Positions 3,494 through 31,893 of a DNA stretch of 32,000 nucleotides are shown here, piece after piece; position 1 is the first letter of the stretch, and each line of letters begins with the position of its first letter. The position numbers and the translations under genes are program-made. Below the pieces are notes generated by a model. That model saw nothing but the letters and a program-made list of their open reading frames with translations, ran no database searches and was not told the DNA's origin. Location: assembly GCF_004376175.1 (NCBI RefSeq), contig NZ_SNUY01000011.1, positions 49,941 through 81,940 of the forward strand. Direction: 5' to 3'. Source of the DNA: Halalkalibacterium halodurans (GTDB lineage Bacteria; Bacillota; Bacilli; Bacillales; Bacillaceae_D).

Positions 3494-5062
3494 ATGTCGC
3501 AGCCACAAGTTAAAGCACGTGTAATAAAGGCACAAGGATTGTCGGGGTCATCAAAACAGATTTATCAGGATGACTTTAAAGAATGGTATGGACTAGATGT
3601 TATTATGCCTCCCTATAATCTCCAAGAACTCAAGGTGATTGCAGAAAAATCTACTGTACTTCAGCAGTGTATAGATGCCTATTGCACAAACCTAATTGGT
3701 TTCGGTCTAGAGCCTGAATATACGTTTGATTTTAATGCTGCCAAAGACGAGAAGGACGGGAACCGTAGATCTGCGAAACAGGTGGAAGCTGAAAAAGAGT
3801 GGGTGCAGCTCGAGGAATTCATTAAATATCTAAATCATGATGAACGGGCTGAAACCATAATCGAATACGCAATCGCAGACATGGAAAAGACGGGAAATGG
3901 GTACCTCGAAGTAATGCGAAATGTCAAAGGCGAACCGGCTGAAATCCAGTACATGGACAGCCAATACATGCGTGTCTGTACTCGCACAGTTCCAGAAAAA
4001 ATTGAAGAACCTATAACCGTCCAAGGGAAGCCGAGCACATACACGAGGTGGAAAAGGTTCAGGCGGTATGCGCAGATGGTGAATGGGAAAATTGTCTACT
4101 TCAAGGAATATGGAGATCCACGAATCATGAACTCTAAAACTGGGAAATTTGATGACAACACACCCGAGAATCTTCGTGCCACCGAGGTCATTCATTTCAA
4201 AGTTGGAAGTGGAGCTTATGGCATACCGCGATGGATCGGGAACTTAATAGGGATGTATGGGGCCAGAAAAGCAGAGGAGTTAAACTACTTGTATTTCAAA
4301 AATGGTCGACACATACCTGCTGCAATTCTTGTAGAAAACGGGATGCTTAGCGAAGACTCATACGAAGAGTTACAAGAGTACATGAATCAGGCGCAAGGGG
4401 TGGACAATGCACATAAATTCCTACTGTTAGAGGTGGAAGGAATCAAGCCTACCGATGATCTGAAATTAAACGCGGACAATGTATCTAATGTTAGGGTGCA
4501 AATTAAGAGTCTTGCCGAAATGCTGCAGCAGGACGCTCTTTTTCTGGAATACGATGAAAAACACCGAGAAAAGCTGCGCTCGTCCTTTAGATTGCCGCCT
4601 ATTTATGTGGGAGAAGCAAAAGATCTGAACCGAGCTACGGCGGATACAGCGCGTAAGGTAACGGAAGAACAAGTCTTTCAACCTATGAGGAATAAAATCG
4701 TAGGAAAGCTCAATTCATTGTTTTTGCCTGACCTTGGGTTGAATCTTGTTCGCATGGTCGCCAAAGGTCCAGACTTCCGTGATCCTATGGAAATTGCGAA
4801 AGTACTTATTCCTTTTGTTAATGCTCGCGCATTAGCGCCAAACGACTTGCGTGATGCTGCCGGACGTATCTTGGGTAAGACGCTAGAAGAATGGCCAGAG
4901 GAGATCTATAATCGCCCACTTGCACGAGAGCAGCAAGTTATCGATGGTGAAACGATTCAGCAAAACTCAATCCAAAAGGCGGCACCACACGATCAATCCG
5001 AACTCGTGAGCGTGCTTAAAGATTTGCGAGATTATGTGATCCGTTCGGAGGAAAAACGATGA
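3494..5062 (+). CDS. Portal protein
   Basis: 522 aa, immediately after terL. The GNGYLEV-type portal core motif region is present. Overlaps the next gene (ATGA). Confidence 0.9.
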   Translation: MSQPQVKARVIKAQGLSGSSKQIYQDDFKEWYGLDVIMPPYNLQELKVIAEKSTVLQQCIDAYCTNLIGFGLEPEYTFDFNAAKDEKDGNRRSAKQVEAEKEWVQLEEFIKYLNHDERAETIIEYAIADMEKTGNGYLEVMRNVKGEPAEIQYMDSQYMRVCTRTVPEKIEEPITVQGKPSTYTRWKRFRRYAQMVNGKIVYFKEYGDPRIMNSKTGKFDDNTPENLRATEVIHFKVGSGAYGIPRWIGNLIGMYGARKAEELNYLYFKNGRHIPAAILVENGMLSEDSYEELQEYMNQAQGVDNAHKFLLLEVEGIKPTDDLKLNADNVSNVRVQIKSLAEMLQQDALFLEYDEKHREKLRSSFRLPPIYVGEAKDLNRATADTARKVTEEQVFQPMRNKIVGKLNSLFLPDLGLNLVRMVAKGPDFRDPMEIAKVLIPFVNARALAPNDLRDAAGRILGKTLEEWPEEIYNRPLAREQQVIDGETIQQNSIQKAAPHDQSELVSVLKDLRDYVIRSEEKR

Positions 5063-25276: not shown

Positions 25277-25504
25277 ATGATGTTTGATACAGGAAGCATT
25301 GCGCGTTTTTTCGGTTTGATTGCTGCACTATTGGCGTATTTCGGGGTAAATGTGCCAGAGGATTTAACAGAGGCGGTTACTAGTTTTGTTGTTGCCGCTC
25401 TAGCAGTTTACGCTGCATGGAAAAACAACTATATCAGCAAAAAAGGGCATGAACAAAAGAAAGTTTTAGAGGAAGCTGGTCTAAAGAAAGGGGAGATCGA
25501 GTAA
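25277..25504 (+). CDS. Holin (XhlB / SPP1 holin family)
   Basis: Two TM segments. The motif AAWKNNYISKKG matches the XhlB-type W-x-K-N-N-Y-x-T/S-x-K-G signature. Confidence 0.85.
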   Translation: MMFDTGSIARFFGLIAALLAYFGVNVPEDLTEAVTSFVVAALAVYAAWKNNYISKKGHEQKKVLEEAGLKKGEIE

Positions 25505-26670
25505 TGGGATATAGATTCGAGAAACTTTCACAGTTATCCGATCAACGGAACCGATTAAGAAAAAAGGGGAATTATTCAAAACGTACACAGCCTATCACTG
25601 TTCGTGCTTGGCATCATTCTTTGACTAAAAAACATTCTGCAGGTTCGACCGCTGCCGGATTTGCAAATTATCATGTGGGGTCTTTAGGATGGCCTGGTAT
25701 TGGCTATACGTTTGTGATCGAACCACAAAATATAGTAAATACACCAAACGGTAAGCGGGCAAGAATTGTATATTGCCATGACATTGATCGTCGTACTTAT
25801 CATGTTGGTAACAGCAACTCATTTGCATTAGGTATTTGTGTTGCAGGCGACTATCGAACTGAACAGCTAGATCAACCGACCTTAGCGTCAATTGCAGATT
25901 TACACTCGGCGTTAGTAGCCGACAAGATCGGAAGTAGTGACAAATCACACCACGAATTTCCGGGATACGCTTGGAAACAGTGTTGCACATTTGATTATAA
26001 AAAGGCATTTAAGGCACAGTCGCCGTCTGATCAAACCAACACAAAACCTCCAGCCACTGTACCTTCAACGTACACGATTCAAGAAGGAGATACATTCTGG
26101 AGCATCGCCCATAAAAATAGCGCAACTGGAGTAACAGTGGAAGGTTTGATTAAAGCCAACCCTGGAGTTGATCCAACTAAACTTAAAGTTGGCCAAGTCA
26201 TCAATTTTAATACAAAAGCTAGTAAGTCAAACAACGAACACAAACAATCCCAATCTGGTGCTTCTAAGGCTAAACCAAGTGGTGACCCATATGTACGTAA
26301 TATCCAACAGTTTGTAAACAGCTATGGATTCAGCATTGCGGTTGACGGGATCGCGGGACCGCAGACGATGAGAGGTCTGGTGCGAGTTTTGCAAACGGAG
26401 CTCAATAAACAATTTGGGCGCGGTCTTGTCGTTGATGGCATCTTTGGCCCACGAACACGGGCGGCATTAGTCAATGTGAGAGCAGGGGCACGCGGCAACC
26501 TCACTCGTGTATTACAGGCTTTGCTGTACATCAAGGGCTATGATGTTGGCCCATTTGACGGCATCTTTGGCGGAAAAACAGAGACGGCTGTAAGATCGTT
26601 TCAGCGCGCAAACAGGTTGACCGTGGATGGGATTGTCGGCCCTCAAACTTGGGCGGCATTACTTAGTTGA
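25504..26670 (+). CDS. Endolysin: N-acetylmuramoyl-L-alanine amidase (Amidase_2/PGRP) + LysM + PG-binding repeats
   Basis: Amidase core: GWPGIGYTFVIEP...YHVGNSN...GICVAGDY. LysM: YTIQEGDTFWSIA...VGQVINF. PG_binding_1-like repeats: VDGIAGPQT, VDGIFGPRT, VDGIVGPQTWAAL. Confidence 0.95.
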   Translation: MGYRFEKLSQLSDQRNRLRKKGNYSKRTQPITVRAWHHSLTKKHSAGSTAAGFANYHVGSLGWPGIGYTFVIEPQNIVNTPNGKRARIVYCHDIDRRTYHVGNSNSFALGICVAGDYRTEQLDQPTLASIADLHSALVADKIGSSDKSHHEFPGYAWKQCCTFDYKKAFKAQSPSDQTNTKPPATVPSTYTIQEGDTFWSIAHKNSATGVTVEGLIKANPGVDPTKLKVGQVINFNTKASKSNNEHKQSQSGASKAKPSGDPYVRNIQQFVNSYGFSIAVDGIAGPQTMRGLVRVLQTELNKQFGRGLVVDGIFGPRTRAALVNVRAGARGNLTRVLQALLYIKGYDVGPFDGIFGGKTETAVRSFQRANRLTVDGIVGPQTWAALLS

Positions 26671-26697: not shown

Positions 26698-26796
26698 CTT
26701 GACTCACTGTAAATCATATGCTATCTTTTAAACAAGGTCGCGCCCGATACGGACGCGTGGATTGAAATAGTAACTATATAATAGGTTATCACGAAG

Positions 26797-26826
26797 CCCC
26801 TGCTCATTGAGCGGGGGTTTTGTCTG
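26797..26826 (+). terminator. Strong plus-strand intrinsic terminator (probable end of the lysis transcript and/or of a short RNA)
   Basis: CCCCTGCTC 26797-26805 pairs with GAGCGGGGG 26809-26817 (3-nt loop, one G-U pair), followed by TTTTGTCTGCTTCTTT. Confidence 0.8.
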
Positions 26827-26850
26827 CTTCTTTGAATATCTAATTTAATA

Positions 26851-26871
26851 GGGAGGGGCTTTGCCCCTCCC
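26851..26871. terminator. Perfect 9-bp GC hairpin just beyond the stop of the 69-aa gene
   Basis: GGGAGGGGC-TTT-GCCCCTCCC. The flanking U-tracts are weak on both strands. Confidence 0.5.
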
Positions 26872-26874
26872 GAT

Positions 26875-27084
26875 TTAAGCGTTGGTAGTGTTAAGGTAAT
26901 GATACTCAAATCCGTATTCTGTTTCCTTTTCTTCGTACCAGTGAGCATAGCGTAATCCTTGCTCGTTTTCCGCTTCTACCTTTTCTTGCATGTCGATCCC
27001 TGCTTCAATTGCGAGGTCGCTAGATATTACCTCACCAGGGCATCCTACATTGTCACTGTAAACTACATAAATCTTTTCCATCAT
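26875..27084 (-). CDS. Small acidic protein of unknown function (69 aa)
   Basis: GGAG RBS and its own operator-bearing promoter. The sequence is rich in E/D/Y (MMEKIYVVYSDNVGCPGEV...EKETEYGFEYHYL). Confidence 0.65.
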   Translation of the reverse strand: MMEKIYVVYSDNVGCPGEVISSDLAIEAGIDMQEKVEAENEQGLRYAHWYEEKETEYGFEYHYLNTTNA

Positions 27085-27149
27085 TTTTTCTCCATCCCTT
27101 CACCTCATCCGGTATCTCCGGCTTGTTGGATTATTTTATGTCTTCCCTT

Positions 27150-27190
27150 GCTGTTATTTATAATATATCATAGAAATAACAGCATGTAAA
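27150..27190 (-). promoter_or_regulatory. Sigma-A-type promoter with an overlapping 10-bp palindromic operator
   Basis: Minus strand: TTTACA (27190-27185), N17, TGaTATATT (-10 at 27167-27162). The inverted repeat GCTGTTATTT 27150-27159 / AAATAACAGC 27174-27183 spans the -10 and the start site. Confidence 0.6.
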
Positions 27191-27204
27191 TAGTTATATG
27201 AAAA

Positions 27205-27429
27205 TTAATTTTGTTTTTTAAAAGTTTTTTTGTTACGTGCGTATTCTTCAAGGTCTGCACGTAAGTACAGCCTTGTTTTGCGCACCGCTCCAAACTCCAC
27301 AAAAGGCTCAATCTTTCCTGTAGCCACCGACTGATTAAAGCCGTGTACAGATTGACCCGTGATGTCTTTTGCTTCGTCCTGCATGACCAAGTTTTCTTTT
27401 ATCCATTTCCTTACTTCTTCTTTATTCAT
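27205..27429 (-). CDS. Xis/MerR-like helix-turn-helix protein (74 aa)
   Basis: Start at the ATG at 27429, 6 nt after AAGGAGG; the track's 122-aa version overlaps the upstream gene. It forms an ATGAATAA overlap with the 213-aa gene. Motif: V-M-x-x-EA...GKIEPF...RLYLRADLEEY. Confidence 0.75.
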   Translation of the reverse strand: MNKEEVRKWIKENLVMQDEAKDITGQSVHGFNQSVATGKIEPFVEFGAVRKTRLYLRADLEEYARNKKTFKKQN

Positions 27430-28063
27430 TGTTGTCCTCCTTATCATTTTTTCTATTCCCGTGTTTCGGCATCTTTTCGGCAAGTATATCAAGGTCATCT
27501 TGCCAATAAAGTTTGATGCTTGCCCTTTCGCCCCCAACGATTTTGAATGGATATATTTCATATAACTCTGCATATTTGACGAATGTGAGTTTTGAGCATT
27601 TTAAGTATTCGAGCGCTTCGGTTTGAGAGTAGATTTTTTTCATTGCTTCTTCTCTCAACCTTATCTTTCGGGCACGCTCTTTTACTTCGTTCCACTTCAT
27701 TTGTGTGTTCGCGAGTATCGAGGTGTGGGATGGTCTTCGGTTTGACGATGCCCAACCGTTATACTCTTGAACTGAAAAATTGCTATGGCCGAAATGCTCA
27801 ATTGCTTCCACTAATGCCTGGATATAATCTGTTCTTTTATACCTTGGTACTGGCTTCCCCCTCCGTGCAACATTGTGAGGTAGTGGAGAGTCTGTCTTGG
27901 GAAACAAGTCCGACCAATGGGCGTTAAGATAGGTAATAAGCGTTGGAGACCGTGGTAAACCGTTTTCCTTTGCCCAAACATCATAATCATTTTTGGATAT
28001 ATATCCATGTTCTTTTTTTGCGCGCTCATATGCATTGATAATATCCTGCATGCTATACGACAT
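27422..28063 (-). CDS. DNA-binding protein: two homing-endonuclease-associated-like repeats plus a C-terminal Xis-like HTH, with no nuclease domain
   Basis: There is an internal duplication: QDIINAYERAKKEHGYISKNDYDVWAKENGLPRSPTLITYLNAHWSDLF versus TDYIQALVEAIEHFGHSNFSVQEYNGWASSNRRPSHTSILANTQMKWNEVK. The C-terminus (TEALEYLKCSKLTFVKYAELYEIYPF...KLYWQDDLD) is paralogous to the 74- and 80-aa HTH proteins. Confidence 0.7.
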   Translation of the reverse strand: MSYSMQDIINAYERAKKEHGYISKNDYDVWAKENGLPRSPTLITYLNAHWSDLFPKTDSPLPHNVARRGKPVPRYKRTDYIQALVEAIEHFGHSNFSVQEYNGWASSNRRPSHTSILANTQMKWNEVKERARKIRLREEAMKKIYSQTEALEYLKCSKLTFVKYAELYEIYPFKIVGGERASIKLYWQDDLDILAEKMPKHGNRKNDKEDNNE

Positions 28064-28090
28064 ATATTTACCTCTCCCCTCCGTTTTCTT

Positions 28091-28129
28091 TGTTATATAA
28101 ATAATAACATATGATTTTATATATGTAAA
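28091..28129 (-). promoter_or_regulatory. Sigma-A-type promoter with an overlapping inverted repeat sharing TGTTAT/ATAACA half-sites
   Basis: Minus strand: TTTACA (28129-28124), N17, TGtTATTAT (-10 at 28106-28101). The inverted repeat is TGTTAT 28091-28096 / ATAACA 28104-28109. Confidence 0.6.
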
Positions 28130-28197
28130 GAGTTTTCTAAAACTTTTTTCAAGGAATATTCAAAAGAGGGGAGAACCTTTATTTTAGAGGTGATCAC

Positions 28198-28395
28198 ATG
28201 GAGGTAAAGAACAAACTCAAATCAATGCGCCACGCACACGAGATGGATCAAAAGCAATTTGCCGAAAAACTCGGATTGCGGCAAGAACAATATAACCGCT
28301 ACGAGCGGCAGGCAAGGCAGCCGACTCTGAAAATAGCACTAGAGATAAGCGCTAAACTCAATATGACAGTCAACGATTTATTTTATTTAGAATAG
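28198..28395 (+). CDS. XRE/Cro-C1-family HTH transcriptional regulator (65 aa)
   Basis: The classical HTH_3 pattern MDQKQFAEKLGLRQEQYNRYERQARQPTLKIALEISAKLNMTVNDLF, with a GAGGTGA RBS. Confidence 0.9.
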   Translation: MEVKNKLKSMRHAHEMDQKQFAEKLGLRQEQYNRYERQARQPTLKIALEISAKLNMTVNDLFYLE

Positions 28396-28455
28396 GACAG
28401 GCAATATTTATACCAAACTGGCATACACTGTATCATCAAAAGGAGGATGATACAC

Positions 28456-28704
28456 ATGCAAGTAATAATGCCGTTTCATCGACGATTGGCTGAACTGGCC
28501 CACATTCAAAAATCGAGGGAACTGACAGAACAGGAATATGATGATTTTGATTTGTGCATCAAAGCTAATATGTACTATGTACAAAAGCTAACAGGTTTGT
28601 ATGAGTTGAGTTACTTGGCAAGCGTGACACAAGATGTAGAATGGCAACATGAGATTTGTAGTAAGATCGATGAGGTTGTTGTAGGTAAGCGAAAAAAGAA
28701 GTAA
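28456..28704 (+). CDS. Hypothetical helical protein (82 aa) downstream of the XRE gene
   Basis: Start moved to ATG 28456, 9 nt after AAGGAGG. The basic C-terminus overlaps the terminator stem. Confidence 0.6.
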   Translation: MQVIMPFHRRLAELAHIQKSRELTEQEYDDFDLCIKANMYYVQKLTGLYELSYLASVTQDVEWQHEICSKIDEVVVGKRKKK

Positions 28705-28720
28705 AAAACTTCTTTTATCT
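28695..28720. terminator. Bidirectional AT-rich terminator
   Basis: AAAGAAGT 28695-28702 pairs with ACTTCTTT 28708-28715. T-rich sequence follows on the plus strand, and TTTTTTCG follows on the minus strand. Confidence 0.6.
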
Positions 28721-28721
28721 A

Positions 28722-28750
28722 TTTACATTTGTCATGAGATTTGATATAAT
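28722..28750 (+). promoter_or_regulatory. Near-consensus extended -10 sigma-A promoter for the small peptide operon
   Basis: TTTACA 28722-28727, N17, TGaTATAAT (TATAAT at 28745-28750). Confidence 0.7.
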
Positions 28751-28774
28751 TAAAGTAGAAAGGGGGGAGATAAA

Positions 28775-28912
28775 GTGGATTGGGAAAAGTTAGTCCTTCT
28801 TTTAGCTTCCATATCAGGCATCTTTGCTGGTGTCACCACAGGAATGAAGAACATCCAAGAAATGAAAGCTAAAAGAAAGCGACGTCCTCGGTCAAGGAAA
28901 CGTCGCAAGTAA
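28775..28912 (+). CDS. 45-aa membrane peptide with a poly-K/R tail (type I toxin-like; not in the ORF track)
   Basis: GTG 28775, 4 nt after GGGGGGAGA. The translation is MDWEKLVLLLASISGIFAGVTTGMKNIQEMKAKRKRRPRSRKRRK. 12 of the last 15 residues are K/R. Confidence 0.6.
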   Translation: MDWEKLVLLLASISGIFAGVTTGMKNIQEMKAKRKRRPRSRKRRK

Positions 28913-28919
28913 TACCTAG

Positions 28920-28937
28920 GGGGAGGGAAACCTCCCC
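28920..28937. other. 7-bp GC hairpin with a GAAA tetraloop, without a U-tract
   Basis: GGGGAGG-GAAA-CCTCCCC. It would sit at the 3' end of the peptide mRNA and at the extreme 5' end of the predicted antisense RNA. Confidence 0.6.
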
Positions 28938-28970
28938 ACATAAAAATTATACCACAATCCACTTAAAAAT

Positions 28971-29126
28971 ATGAGAGGCCAACTGATTTTGAACGGGTCT
29001 TTGGTTGTTTTATGTCTAGTGGTAATGGATTGGAACTTTGGATCGTGGCTAGACTATGCTCTATTAGGAGTAGCTATAGTTCTTTCTTCCATTACACTCT
29101 GGAACTTATTAATGAAGGGTGACTGA
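28971..29126 (+). CDS. Possible second small membrane protein (45-51 aa; start uncertain)
   Basis: The frame is open from ATG 28971 (no RBS) or from TTG 28989 (AGAGG 10 nt upstream). It ends 2 nt before the TTG start of the 80-aa HTH gene. It is hydrophobic: ...LVVLCLVVMDWNFGSWLDYALLGVAIVLSSITLWNLLMKGD. Confidence 0.3.
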   Translation: MRGQLILNGSLVVLCLVVMDWNFGSWLDYALLGVAIVLSSITLWNLLMKGD

Positions 29127-29128
29127 CG

Positions 29129-29371
29129 TTGTACAAATTCGATTCGAAAGAGGAGCTTTTGGAGTTTATTAGCCGTGAAGTCCTAATGACTAGTGAAGCT
29201 AGCGAGTTTTTGGATGTTTCGCGGCAGCGTATGAGCGAACTAATACGCGCAAAGAAAATTACACCAATCAAAAAATCGCGTGGTTCCAGTTTATTTCTGC
29301 GTGAGGATCTTGAGCAAAAGAAAAAAGAGCTTGAGCAGCTCCGCAAAAAATACCGCCCTTATGATGAGTAG
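29129..29371 (+). CDS. Xis/MerR-like helix-turn-helix protein (80 aa), paralogue of the 74-aa protein
   Basis: TTG start 6 nt after GAAGGGTGA. It aligns with the 74-aa protein along its whole length (EELLEFISREVLMTSEASEFL...KKITPI...LFLREDLEQ). Confidence 0.75.
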   Translation: MYKFDSKEELLEFISREVLMTSEASEFLDVSRQRMSELIRAKKITPIKKSRGSSLFLREDLEQKKKELEQLRKKYRPYDE

Positions 29372-29386
29372 GGGCGGTATTTTATT
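29347..29386. terminator. Bidirectional terminator between convergent genes
   Basis: ATACCGCCC 29350-29358 pairs with GGGCGGTAT 29372-29380. An A-run precedes it and TTTTATTG follows. Confidence 0.8.
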
Positions 29387-29393
29387 GATCACC

Positions 29394-30252: not shown

Positions 30253-30600
30253 TTATATTTTACTAGCGCTTTTTAAGCAGTCAATCTTTACATAATAAAT
30301 ATCGTCATCACCAAAAACTACTTTTATTTGTTTAAGTTGCTGATCTATTTTAGAGATGTGGCCAACGACAGTTTGATAAAACCCTTCATGCCAATATGTG
30401 ATACTTAAGGGGTATTGTTGATCTATTGAATCCATTATGAGGTAACCAATTTCTTGTAATTCTTGTTCGTCGAGTGTAGGTTTTGAAACTTTTTTTGATT
30501 CAAATTTATATTGTTGCAGAGCGGATATATGCTCAGGCAGCATAAAGCGAGACGACTCCCATCTTAAATTTGTTCCTGGTGTTAGCTTATTTTGTTTCAT
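30253..30600 (-). CDS. YolD-like protein
   Basis: 115 aa. The N-terminal pattern R-W-E-S-S-R-F-M-L-P-E-H and the overall size match the YolD-like family of Bacillus. GGGAGG RBS. A LexA box lies in its promoter. Confidence 0.8.
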   Translation of the reverse strand: MKQNKLTPGTNLRWESSRFMLPEHISALQQYKFESKKVSKPTLDEQELQEIGYLIMDSIDQQYPLSITYWHEGFYQTVVGHISKIDQQLKQIKVVFGDDDIYYVKIDCLKSASKI

Positions 30601-30628: not shown

Positions 30629-30640
30629 GAACTTTTGTTC
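30629..30640. promoter_or_regulatory. LexA (Cheo/SOS) box GAAC-N4-GTTC
   Basis: GAACTTTTGTTC sits immediately upstream of the minus-strand TATAAT (30626-30621) of the YolD-like gene. Confidence 0.7.
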
Positions 30641-30768: not shown

Positions 30769-31893
30769 ATGTCTTTTAAAAACTTAGTATCAGGTAAAAA
30801 ATTGCCTGTTATATTTATTGGCTCCGGCCTAAGTAGAAGATATTTAGATAGTCCTGATTGGGATAACTTATTAATAAAAACATTGCAGTTTATAGGTAAA
30901 AACGAGCGGGATTTTAAAAGGCTAAAATCGCGAATAAAGAATAAGCCTGAGAATAGAAATTTAATTAATGGTGAAATAAATGCAAAAGTCGCGGCAGAGA
31001 TTGAAAATGAATTTAATGAATTCTTTTATGAAAGTGATTTAATTGAAAAGTATCCGGATTGGCTAGACGAAGGAGTTAATCCTTTCAGAAAATGTATTGC
31101 TACAATTCTACAAGGGTTAAATGTTATGAAAGAAAAAGAAGAAGAGGTTTCTTTATTTAAAGCTTTAAAAAACAAGACAATAGCAGCTATTACTACTAAT
31201 TATGATACCTTATTAGAGCAGTTGTTTAACTTACCTAAAGAAAGTATCTTCATTGGACAACCTCAATTATTTAATCCTAATTCTCTTGATCTAGGTGAAC
31301 TTTACAAGATTCATGGATGTGTTACAGACCCAAATAACATAGTTATTACAGAGCATGATTATAAAAACTTCAAGAATAATGCAAAACTATTTACTGCGAA
31401 GCTCTTAACTTTAATTAGCGAAAATCCTGTGATTTTTATAGGCTACTCAATTGATGATCCCAATATGCAACAGATCTTAAGTGATTTAGTAAGTTGTTTA
31501 TCATCCGAACAAATCAAAAGTCTAATTAATCATTTTTATTTTGTAGAGTATAATGAAGGGGAAGAGAATCTAATAGAAAAAGAGTACCTTTTTGAAGCGA
31601 AATCTTACGATGGTAAACTCTCAGTTTTTCCTATATCAATTATTAGTACTGATAATTACGCAGAAGTATATAAAGAGCTAGCTAAATTAACACCAACTAT
31701 GAATATCAATACAGTAAAACAAGTAAAAAGAATTGTTAAAGATATTGTGTTAGAGTCTACAGAAGCTCAAAGTGGTAACGAAGAGGTGTTGACTATTCTC
31801 TTAGAAGATATAAACAAACTATCTGAAACTAAACAGAAGTTTGCTATTGCTATTGGTAACGTAAAAGAAATTACCTCTATAGCCCCTAAATGA
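30769..31893 (+). CDS. SIR2-like (SIR2_2 family, NADase-type defence) protein, probably 3'-truncated by an IS insertion
   Basis: Motifs: LPVIFIGSGLSRRY (glycine-rich NAD loop), TTNYD (Asn144), KIHGC (His182), VIFIGYSIDDPN. GGAGGTG RBS. The stop TGA 31891-31893 coincides with the terminal TG.. of the IS. Confidence 0.85.
   Translation: MSFKNLVSGKKLPVIFIGSGLSRRYLDSPDWDNLLIKTLQFIGKNERDFKRLKSRIKNKPENRNLINGEINAKVAAEIENEFNEFFYESDLIEKYPDWLDEGVNPFRKCIATILQGLNVMKEKEEEVSLFKALKNKTIAAITTNYDTLLEQLFNLPKESIFIGQPQLFNPNSLDLGELYKIHGCVTDPNNIVITEHDYKNFKNNAKLFTAKLLTLISENPVIFIGYSIDDPNMQQILSDLVSCLSSEQIKSLINHFYFVEYNEGEENLIEKEYLFEAKSYDGKLSVFPISIISTDNYAEVYKELAKLTPTMNINTVKQVKRIVKDIVLESTEAQSGNEEVLTILLEDINKLSETKQKFAIAIGNVKEITSIAPK

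Follow-up and report, generated by a model that had tools for sequence, protein, structure and literature searches.

A mosaic accessory arm in a Halalkalibacterium halodurans prophage, with a conserved core built like the yonT-yoyJ/SR6 type I toxin-antitoxin locus

The DNA analysed here, referred to as the window, is a stretch of 32,000 nucleotides from Halalkalibacterium halodurans, and this report concerns a 2.5-kb interval of it that encodes small DNA-binding proteins, two short membrane peptides designated pepA and pepB, and a predicted antisense RNA. One of the encoded proteins, p213, is 100% identical to the product of H. halodurans locus tag E2L07_05840. The prophage is a temperate myophage, and the interval lies in its accessory arm, beyond the lysis genes and towards the right end, as an earlier first-pass annotation of the sequence had placed it. 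All open reading frames (ORFs) of the earlier listing exist and have plausible ribosome-binding sites; the inventory of helix-turn-helix (HTH) proteins, an acidic 69-aa protein, an 82-aa helical protein and tiny membrane peptides was confirmed, and the boundary hairpins, look-alike promoters and shared operator that had been described are all present (Table 1). Gene content, synteny statistics, promoter and terminator motifs and covariation of RNA structure were compared directly between loci. From these comparisons it appears probable, the two statements being taken jointly, that the interval is put together from three or more accessory units, each mobile on its own, and that within it the unit formed by pepA, pepB and the HTH gene Xis80 works, by analogy with the yonT-yoyJ/SR6 locus of phage SPβ, as a type I toxin-antitoxin system.

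Table 1. Features of the interval and of the adjoining prophage region, in window positions
Feature	Position	Strand	Description
Late prophage region	window		Sheath, tube, tape-measure and baseplate genes plus holin; tailed-phage type
Endolysin	25504-26670		388 aa, amidase/LysM; window prophage
Left boundary hairpin	26844-26878		GC-rich with A/T flanks; inverted repeat I10, 16-nt arms, 88% complementary; terminator of the p69 gene
p69	26875-27084	-	69 aa, acidic (15 D/E vs 4 K/R), GGAG ribosome-binding site
p69 promoter	27149-27190	-	-35 at 27185-27190, -10 at 27162-27167
p74	27205-27429	-	Small Xis/MerR-type HTH; start overlaps the p213 stop by 8 nt
p213	27422-28063	-	Two tandem three-helix repeats and a C-terminal MerR/Xis-like winged HTH
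Divergent control region	28091-28139		p213 promoter (-) with -35 at 28124-28129 and -10 at 28101-28106; TGTTAT-N7-ATAACA over the -10
XRE65	28198-28395	+	Cro-like XRE-family HTH; HTH_3 at 1e-10
DUF7667	28456 (ATG)-28704	+	82-aa helical protein with conserved His and Cys; PF24704 at 1e-28
pepA promoter	28722-28750	+	TTTACA-17-(TG)TATAAT; 11/12 consensus positions
pepA	28775-28912	+	45 aa, GTG start, one membrane helix, polybasic tail
Predicted antisense RNA gene	28870-28954	-	Extended -10 box and ~71-nt transcript
Antisense extended -10 box	28946-28954	-	TGGTATAAT
Predicted antisense transcript	28940 to 28870	-	~71 nt; overlaps the last ~43 nt of the pepA ORF
Antisense 5' stem-loop	28920-28937	-	
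Antisense terminator stem	28879-28906	-	
Antisense U-run	28870-28878	-	
pepB	28971-29126	+	51 aa, two membrane helices; stop 2 nt before the Xis80 start
Xis80	29129-29371	+	80 aa, HTH_17 (Xis/MerR-type)
Right boundary, bidirectional terminator	29347-29383		A-tract, 15-nt stem, T-tract; inverted repeat I18, 93% complementary

The absence of any catalytic domain, which the first-pass annotation had stressed, was borne out by the Pfam, PHROGs, PADLOC and NCBIfam libraries, none of which gave such a domain in a cassette protein. A PADLOC run gave no defence-system match in the cassette, its proteins matching no PADLOC-DB model beyond the generic HTH models hit by XRE65, and Xis80 gave a marginal match to mad1 (E 0.004). 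The cassette was also without a match among 50,697 phage records in nucleotide searches of near and distant modes, exact-protein look-ups found none of the window proteins on record, and Rfam returned nothing relevant over 26-32 kb.

To identify relatives of the right-hand genes, the IMG/VR collection was scanned with an alignment of Xis80; 65 loci were recovered, of which 64 could be used. Directly adjoining the HTH gene, 60 of these 64 carry a pepB-like ORF; 48 have a pepA-like ORF 230-290 nt upstream of the HTH gene, and 47 have both. Full-length Xis80 homologues were found in Bacillus phage yong1 (phi105-like), Parageobacillus JGon-2020a, Lysinibacillus phage SDFMU_Pfc and Caldibacillus phage CBP1, and in yong1 and JGon-2020a unannotated ORFs directly upstream encode a pepA-like peptide (one helix, polybasic tail) and a pepB-like peptide (two helices). 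In public annotation the peptides of the trio are all called 'hypothetical protein', and its members in general carry that label or that of a generic HTH protein only.

The features that surround pepA are likewise shared. The peptide has a hydrophobic core at residues 6-22 and a polybasic tail (KRKRRPRSRKRRK / KAKRKRRPRSRKRRK) containing an RP[KR] motif, and its GTG start is preceded by a strong ribosome-binding site (AGAAAGGGGGGAG). The promoter is conserved at the nucleotide level among related loci, where a TG-extended TATAAT promoter is followed by AGTAtAGAAAGGAGG and then by a GTG or ATG start (alignment A8), and a GC stem-loop stands immediately 3' of the pepA stop codon. The peptide sequences themselves diverge fast in pairwise comparisons.

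Two further observations concern the same gene. The pepA ORF contains a long imperfect inverted repeat (28797-28877 (+), 28-nt arms, 79% complementary), which could fold in the toxin mRNA and hold back its translation, as in other type I toxins. H. halodurans also has a decayed copy of the module beside the suf operon (L068 5851-7240, and L069); this copy retains the pepA promoter and start but only 11 codons of the ORF, has an intact gene of Xis80 type next in line, and adjoins an 86-aa tyrosine-integrase fragment.

An antisense potential at pepA had been suspected from the first reading of the sequence, and it proved to be real in the form of a predicted, overlapping minus-strand RNA with covariation. 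The terminator of this RNA lies within the tail codons of pepA, its U-run being encoded by Lys/Arg codons. Minus-strand extended -10 boxes were compared in the window (TGGTATAAT), in yong1 (TGATATAAT) and in SPβ (TGTTATAAT), and stand just past the stem-loop. Each predicted RNA consists of a 5' hairpin and a terminator, with fold z-scores from -3.4 to -5.5 (-3.7 for the RNA of the window); authentic SR6 is made in the same way, and the pattern recurs across groups. Most yonT-type features recur across a comparison set comprising the SPβ locus, the window, L005, L067, yong1, JGon-2020a and SDFMU_Pfc, and the window, L067 and yong1 have all of them.

A covariance model was used for the alignment of these RNAs. 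RNAalifold was unsuccessful on a plain MAFFT alignment of 10 antisense RNAs, in which the hairpin registers were shifted, and the problem was solved by the covariance model (R1), built from five sequences. The model found the element in 22 loci, on the expected strand and in the expected place, with a score of 77.5 bits for the window (28870-28940 (-)), and its matches include phi105-like and JGon-like groups that were absent from model building. In the resulting alignment 91.5% of cells are paired, as against 76% after shuffling and 50-64% with slid partners, and compensatory changes occur at 14 of 18 pairs, counts that are inflated somewhat by the fitting of the alignment to the model. The terminator helix contains many G·U pairs, for which the sense strand would have A·C mismatches, indicating that the fold is specific to the antisense strand. 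Taken from the sequence, these signals lead us to infer that the antisense RNA would be transcribed.

In one IMG/VR prophage (L125) the antisense element is present twice, at 2349-2423 and 3693-3766 (-), scoring 81.6 and 89.9 bits, suggesting that the toxin-antitoxin unit was duplicated in tandem.

The SPβ yonT-yoyJ/SR6 locus is a type I toxin-antitoxin system in which YonT is a toxin of 58 aa that is translated from a GUG start behind a very strong ribosome-binding site and has a single membrane helix and a polybasic tail, YoyJ is a downstream 83-aa two-helix weak toxin, and SR6 is a 100-nt convergent antisense RNA with an extended -10 box that overlaps the toxin gene at its 3' end (PMC5848175, PMC6562991). 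The T1TAdb paper gives this 3'-overlapping layout as the defining organisation of the YonT/as-YonT family, and a 2018 study reported homologues in the Bacillus subtilis group. The pepA locus is alike in many respects: the peptide stays below 60 aa, has a single membrane helix and ends in a charged C-terminus; the GTG/GUG start, over-strong ribosome-binding site, own strong promoter and stem-loop past the stop are found in both; and a convergent 3'-side antisense RNA of about 70-100 nt, with its own promoter and with its terminator inside the toxin ORF, is predicted in silico here as well. Both loci are polycistronic in layout, are located in prophages and have a two-helix membrane ORF downstream, and an XRE-family gene two genes upstream in SPβ (yonR) has its counterpart in XRE65. 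The statement of the first-pass annotation that the cassette matches no known toxin-antitoxin module was thus wrong, as pepA, the antisense RNA and pepB reproduce the yonT-yoyJ/SR6 architecture, and its guess of a guarded membrane toxin under antisense control gained support.

By analogy with that locus, a mechanism can be proposed in which the strong promoter drives pepA, the stem-loop, pepB and Xis80, while a convergent antisense RNA of about 71 nt starts just past the stem-loop and stops inside the codons of the pepA polybasic tail. A stable antisense RNA would pair with the 3' end of the pepA mRNA and lead to its degradation, so that a membrane-active pepA, and a weaker pepB, would be kept silent while the element is present. 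The likely benefit would be retention of the prophage or plasmid, or a response to stress or infection. Toxicity of the peptides and the manner of their neutralisation are thus presumed from the SPβ system. Such a reading would extend yonT/SR6-style architecture well beyond the Bacillus subtilis group, the hosts here including Halalkalibacterium, Parageobacillus, Lysinibacillus and phi105-like phages and not SPβ-like phages alone.

Several results weigh against this reading. Hidden Markov models of pepA and pepB did not retrieve YonT or YoyJ at E < 10 among 11,886 ORFs, and pairwise peptide comparisons were mostly insignificant, with E 0.03 or worse against YonT and YoyJ. Covariance model R1 did not find SR6 at E <= 1 in the SPβ locus (L066), Rfam gave no match, and the inflation of the pairing counts has to be allowed for. 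SR6 reaches the yoyJ ribosome-binding site, whereas the antisense RNA predicted here misses that of pepB. The pepB gene is itself without a Shine-Dalgarno sequence and may therefore be poorly translated. SPβ has the coiled-coil protein YonU (62 aa) where the trio has a Xis/MerR-type HTH gene, and the trio is therefore not simply a yonT operon; YonU was considered as the counterpart of Xis80 and rejected, being a coiled-coil protein. As homology to YonT, YoyJ or SR6 was not demonstrable, the conserved core is described as built like yonT-yoyJ/SR6 and not as a proven member of the family.

A different account of the peptides would make them ordinary lysogen membrane proteins, acting in superinfection exclusion or as holin modulators, with the hairpins as mere terminators or mRNA stabilisers and no functional antisense RNA. 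The position of the genes directly past the lysis genes fits this account, as do the quick divergence of the peptide sequences, the absence of homology to proven toxins and the fact that a GC hairpin past a gene is commonplace. It does not explain why distant loci have the minus-strand extended -10 box at one and the same offset, why the terminator helix and U-run can be read on the minus strand only, or why the covariance model recovers the element across groups, and one homologous module lies beside plasmid partition genes. We regard this account as quite improbable.

The third gene of the trio encodes a protein that matches HTH_17 at 5e-7, above the Pfam cut-off, and phrog_4691 'excisionase' at 8e-30. 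Its C-terminus carries a near-invariant KKYRPYDE motif (alignment A9), and this conservation in the sequence suggests a conserved protein partner. These matches raise the alternative that Xis80 is a recombination directionality factor (RDF), with the peptides and the antisense RNA serving mainly to keep Xis80 low in lysogens; the region would then be the rdf side of an int-attP-rdf unit. Several positions agree with such a role: Xis80 lies at the attR end opposite a large serine recombinase in the sister strain described below, the yong1 homologue is 670 nt from a 478-aa serine recombinase, the CBP1 homologue is the first gene of a record whose last gene is a serine recombinase, and most IMG/VR homologues are at contig ends. 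A split of int and rdf to opposite prophage ends is known from SPβ and phi3T (PMC6957869). Xis80 also resembles HTH_17-type Xis proteins, such as that of mycobacteriophage Pukovnik, as a small winged-HTH protein that is attR-proximal and across attP from the integrase.

Against this, the three serine recombinases are about 24% identical to one another while the Xis80 homologues are about 50% identical, and the family also occurs with tyrosine integrases (phage SDFMU_Pfc and locus L068), so that unrelated integrase types are involved. In the plasmid-like circular JGon-2020a the homologue stands beside ParA and Rep, about 32 kb from the sole recombinase-like gene, and only 7 of the 65 loci have an integrase within 4 kb. 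Xis80 further differs from known Xis and RDF proteins in its KKYRPYDE tail, in the two membrane-peptide genes that precede it and in its apparently constitutive co-transcription from a near-consensus promoter, which would be dangerous for an excision factor. The recombinase divergence, the mixed integrases, the plasmid-like host and the near-consensus promoter lead us to favour an operon-linked DNA-binding role, and a role in excision, the main rival, is considered unlikely. Co-transcribed as it would be, Xis80 is most likely a DNA-binding regulator or accessory factor of the pepA-pepB operon.

It is possible, although we put this forward tentatively, that the trio and the antisense RNA form a distinct three-component module, not described before, that is found in prophages and plasmid-prophages of Bacillaceae, with a type I toxin-antitoxin pair functionally coupled to a Xis/MerR-type HTH protein bearing the KKYRPYDE tail. 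If so, the toxin could be expressed in step with excision of the element or with its loss, or the HTH protein could be a second controller at the protein level. In Halalkalibacterium, Parageobacillus, Lysinibacillus and the phi105-like phages of B. subtilis the yonT-like core invariably shares an operon with the Xis-like HTH gene and is wholly without annotation, and since phi105-like B. subtilis lysogens carry the trio, the role of the HTH protein and peptide-driven prophage stabilisation are open to direct study in a model organism.

Comparison with other H. halodurans prophages shows how the interval is put together. The sister-strain counterpart is a complete temperate phage (IMG/VR UViG 2648501690; loci L055, L049 and L004) in which the right arm, comprising XRE65, DUF7667, the two peptide genes and Xis80, is kept at 68-80% identity, and the left arm is replaced by genes for a 238-aa protein with an N-terminal HTH_17 and a 201-aa protein, with an LXG toxin cassette added. 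In a third H. halodurans prophage the same endolysin is followed by a Panacea-domain gene pair and then by pepA, pepB and Xis80 only. Among the 65 IMG/VR loci XRE65 and DUF7667 occur in one, that of the sister strain, and p69 and p213 in none; a YolD gene lies within about 2 kb downstream in 14. Of the whole interval, pepA-pepB-Xis80 (28.72-29.38 kb) is the sole widely conserved unit, the other two being XRE65-DUF7667 and the p213-p74 operon with p69. The proposal of one undescribed module therefore fails by a refutation test that the first-pass annotation had itself named: checked for co-occurrence as a unit, in the sister strain and in the IMG/VR loci, the seven or eight genes do not travel together and are swapped separately between strains and species. 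The tempting 'enzyme-free module' gives way to a more modest patchwork.

These data bear directly on the view that the four HTH proteins and the peptides all act jointly, the whole 2.5 kb being one integrated regulatory module. Such a module would be an exclusion or abortive-infection switch guarded by a repressor, a second immunity region, or what is left of a minimal satellite. There are features that would suit it. Three promoters have the form TTTACA-17-TATxxT with a TG extension (27190 (-), 28129 (-) and 28722 (+)) and share a CTMTTTACA -35 context that occurs at these three only in the 32 kb, where 0.68 would be expected; two of the promoters lie under the same palindrome; XRE65-DUF7667 resembles the beginning of a phage early operon that lies opposite a repressor gene; and the site is typical of defence genes, with a SIR2-like gene nearby. 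The divergent region recalls CI/Cro immunity switches in its back-to-back promoters, p213 against the small XRE65, and in the palindromic operator over a -10 box; the plus-strand XRE65 promoter of this pair is a weak candidate read by eye.

In the interval, however, the divergent promoters are not followed by lytic, early or replication genes: DUF7667, the peptides and Xis80 are all that comes before a terminator. The two arms are exchanged independently across strains and species, and the operator varies with the left arm and not with the right. A second immunity region is further contradicted by the sister strain, whose own cI/cro/ImmA region and integrase are at the other prophage end. Nor can a satellite like the phage-inducible chromosomal islands be recognised, as there is no integrase, replication/primase or packaging-interference gene between the endolysin and YolD, and the lack of a PADLOC match does not favour a defence switch. 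A single module is thus very unlikely and already largely refuted by the comparative data.

The left arm consists of p213, p74 and p69. The first-pass annotation had described three Xis-like paralogues, and this holds for p74 and Xis80, which are 26% identical over 72 aa (BLAST E 3e-8), p74 also matching phrog_4691 at 3e-8 and HTH_17 at 5e-4; the p213 C-terminus resembles p74 only weakly (E 0.007). In an AlphaFold model of p213, with a pLDDT (predicted local distance difference test) of 82-90 over residues 80-200, the C-terminus forms a winged helix with the order beta-alpha-alpha-beta-beta-alpha. Foldseek placed RacA, BldC, MerR-family proteins and Pukovnik Xis at the head of the matches to it, with E-values that are weak (0.2-1). 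The predicted fold is that of the BldC and RacA DNA-binding domains, and p74 and Xis80 are likely to share a small MerR-like fold by family membership. Unlike BldC and RacA, p213 has duplicated N-terminal three-helix repeats without an identified relative, which arose as an internal duplication (residues 3-53 against 75-127, E 5e-6). The label 'endonuclease-type' that had been given to these repeats could not be verified, p213 matching no Pfam family, including the homing-endonuclease repeat at a lax E-value. Sequence searches of the Protein Data Bank with p213, Xis80 and DUF7667 gave nothing meaningful.

Relatives of the left-arm proteins are rare. Only two relatives of p213 were found among 5.8 billion proteins, and p69 had no match in any library. 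A siphophage of Shouchella clausii encodes homologues of p69 (79% identity) and p213 (56%), adjacent but in a different order, beside its endolysin; an HTH_59 protein of the same locus showed no similarity to p74. We take p213, p74 and p69 to be an orphan, rare set of MerR/Xis-type DNA-binding proteins, with p213 and p69 representing an orphan family.

The palindrome TGTTAT...ATAACA occurs twice in the 32 kb, each time over a -10 box, at the p69 promoter, where it reads TGCTGTTATTTATA / TAGAAATAACAGCA (inverted repeat I21), and at the p213 promoter. The chance expectation is 0.08, two matches were reached in 0 of 100 shuffles, and the palindrome is absent from 73 other loci compared. The presence of the same palindrome over both -10 boxes indicates that p213 or p74 probably acts as auto-repressor of the p213-p74 operon and of p69. 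In the divergent region of the sister strain the operator consists instead of TGCGTTAyCGCA repeats, differing along with the left-arm regulator, which suggests that the left-arm regulators bind this operator.

XRE65 is 69% identical in the sister strain and 45% in Brevibacillus, where it also precedes a DUF7667 gene, and the two resemble the opening gene pair of a phage early operon, encoding a repressor of Cro type and then a small early protein. The linkage of the pair to pepA-pepB-Xis80 is confined to H. halodurans. An exhaustive search for DUF7667 gave 98 cluster representatives. Across 42 genome loci most copies are core genes of Paenibacillus with speE, speB and argS nearby, and DUF7667 was for this reason rejected as an anchor of the module. 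The Bacillaceae copies belong to an early operon, where they come after a cro-like XRE gene and face int-ImmA-cI. His8, Cys34 and Cys68 are near-invariant and His65 is mostly conserved, and DUF7667 may accordingly be a small zinc-binding protein, a role read from these residues. In Paenibacillus (L007-L043) the gene is single-copy and chromosomal, with a DNA glycosylase gene and DUF1934 among its neighbours in addition to speE, speB and argS.

The prophage ends are best seen in related genomes. On its left side the sister prophage has, in order, yhbH, a 510-aa large serine recombinase, an ImmA-like protease and a cI-type XRE repressor; the cI side faces a cro-type XRE gene, which is followed by RecT, DnaD, DnaC, a late sigma-like factor and terminase. 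In strain GCA_001274915.2 the arm terminates shortly past the YolD gene, and chromosomal ydjM, rubrerythrin and yunB come next. The sister prophage begins 27 nt past yhbH with its recombinase gene (L055 1-2744), a position that recalls the SPβ and skin elements, which are sited in or near sporulation genes.

Between the endolysin and the peptide operon lies a hotspot of variable cargo (L005 6435-8116; L067 4786-6399), with an LXG polymorphic toxin and a small immunity-like gene in one strain and a SocA_Panacea-domain gene and a 358-aa gene in another. In the window a candidate small RNA (26699-26830 (+)) is flagged, with a promoter-like TTGACT-17-TATCTT paralogous to the p213 promoter, about 95 nt free of ORFs and then a strong terminator (26791-26823); its fold z-score is -4.4, and the sister strain is without it. 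Rfam had no match for it, and a target search with 26735-26830 found no duplex that beat shuffled sequences and no convincing nearby target.

Beyond the interval, the SIR2-like gene (30769-31893 (+)) matches the PADLOC candidate defence family PDC-S25 at 4e-91, covering about two thirds of that profile only, and also the ThsA and Dsr models; the sister strain does not have it, ydjM following YolD there. The sole LexA-type box of the window (GAACTTTTGTTC, 30629-30640), none being present within the cassette, lies upstream of YolD (30253-30600 (-)), indicating that YolD is probably under SOS control.

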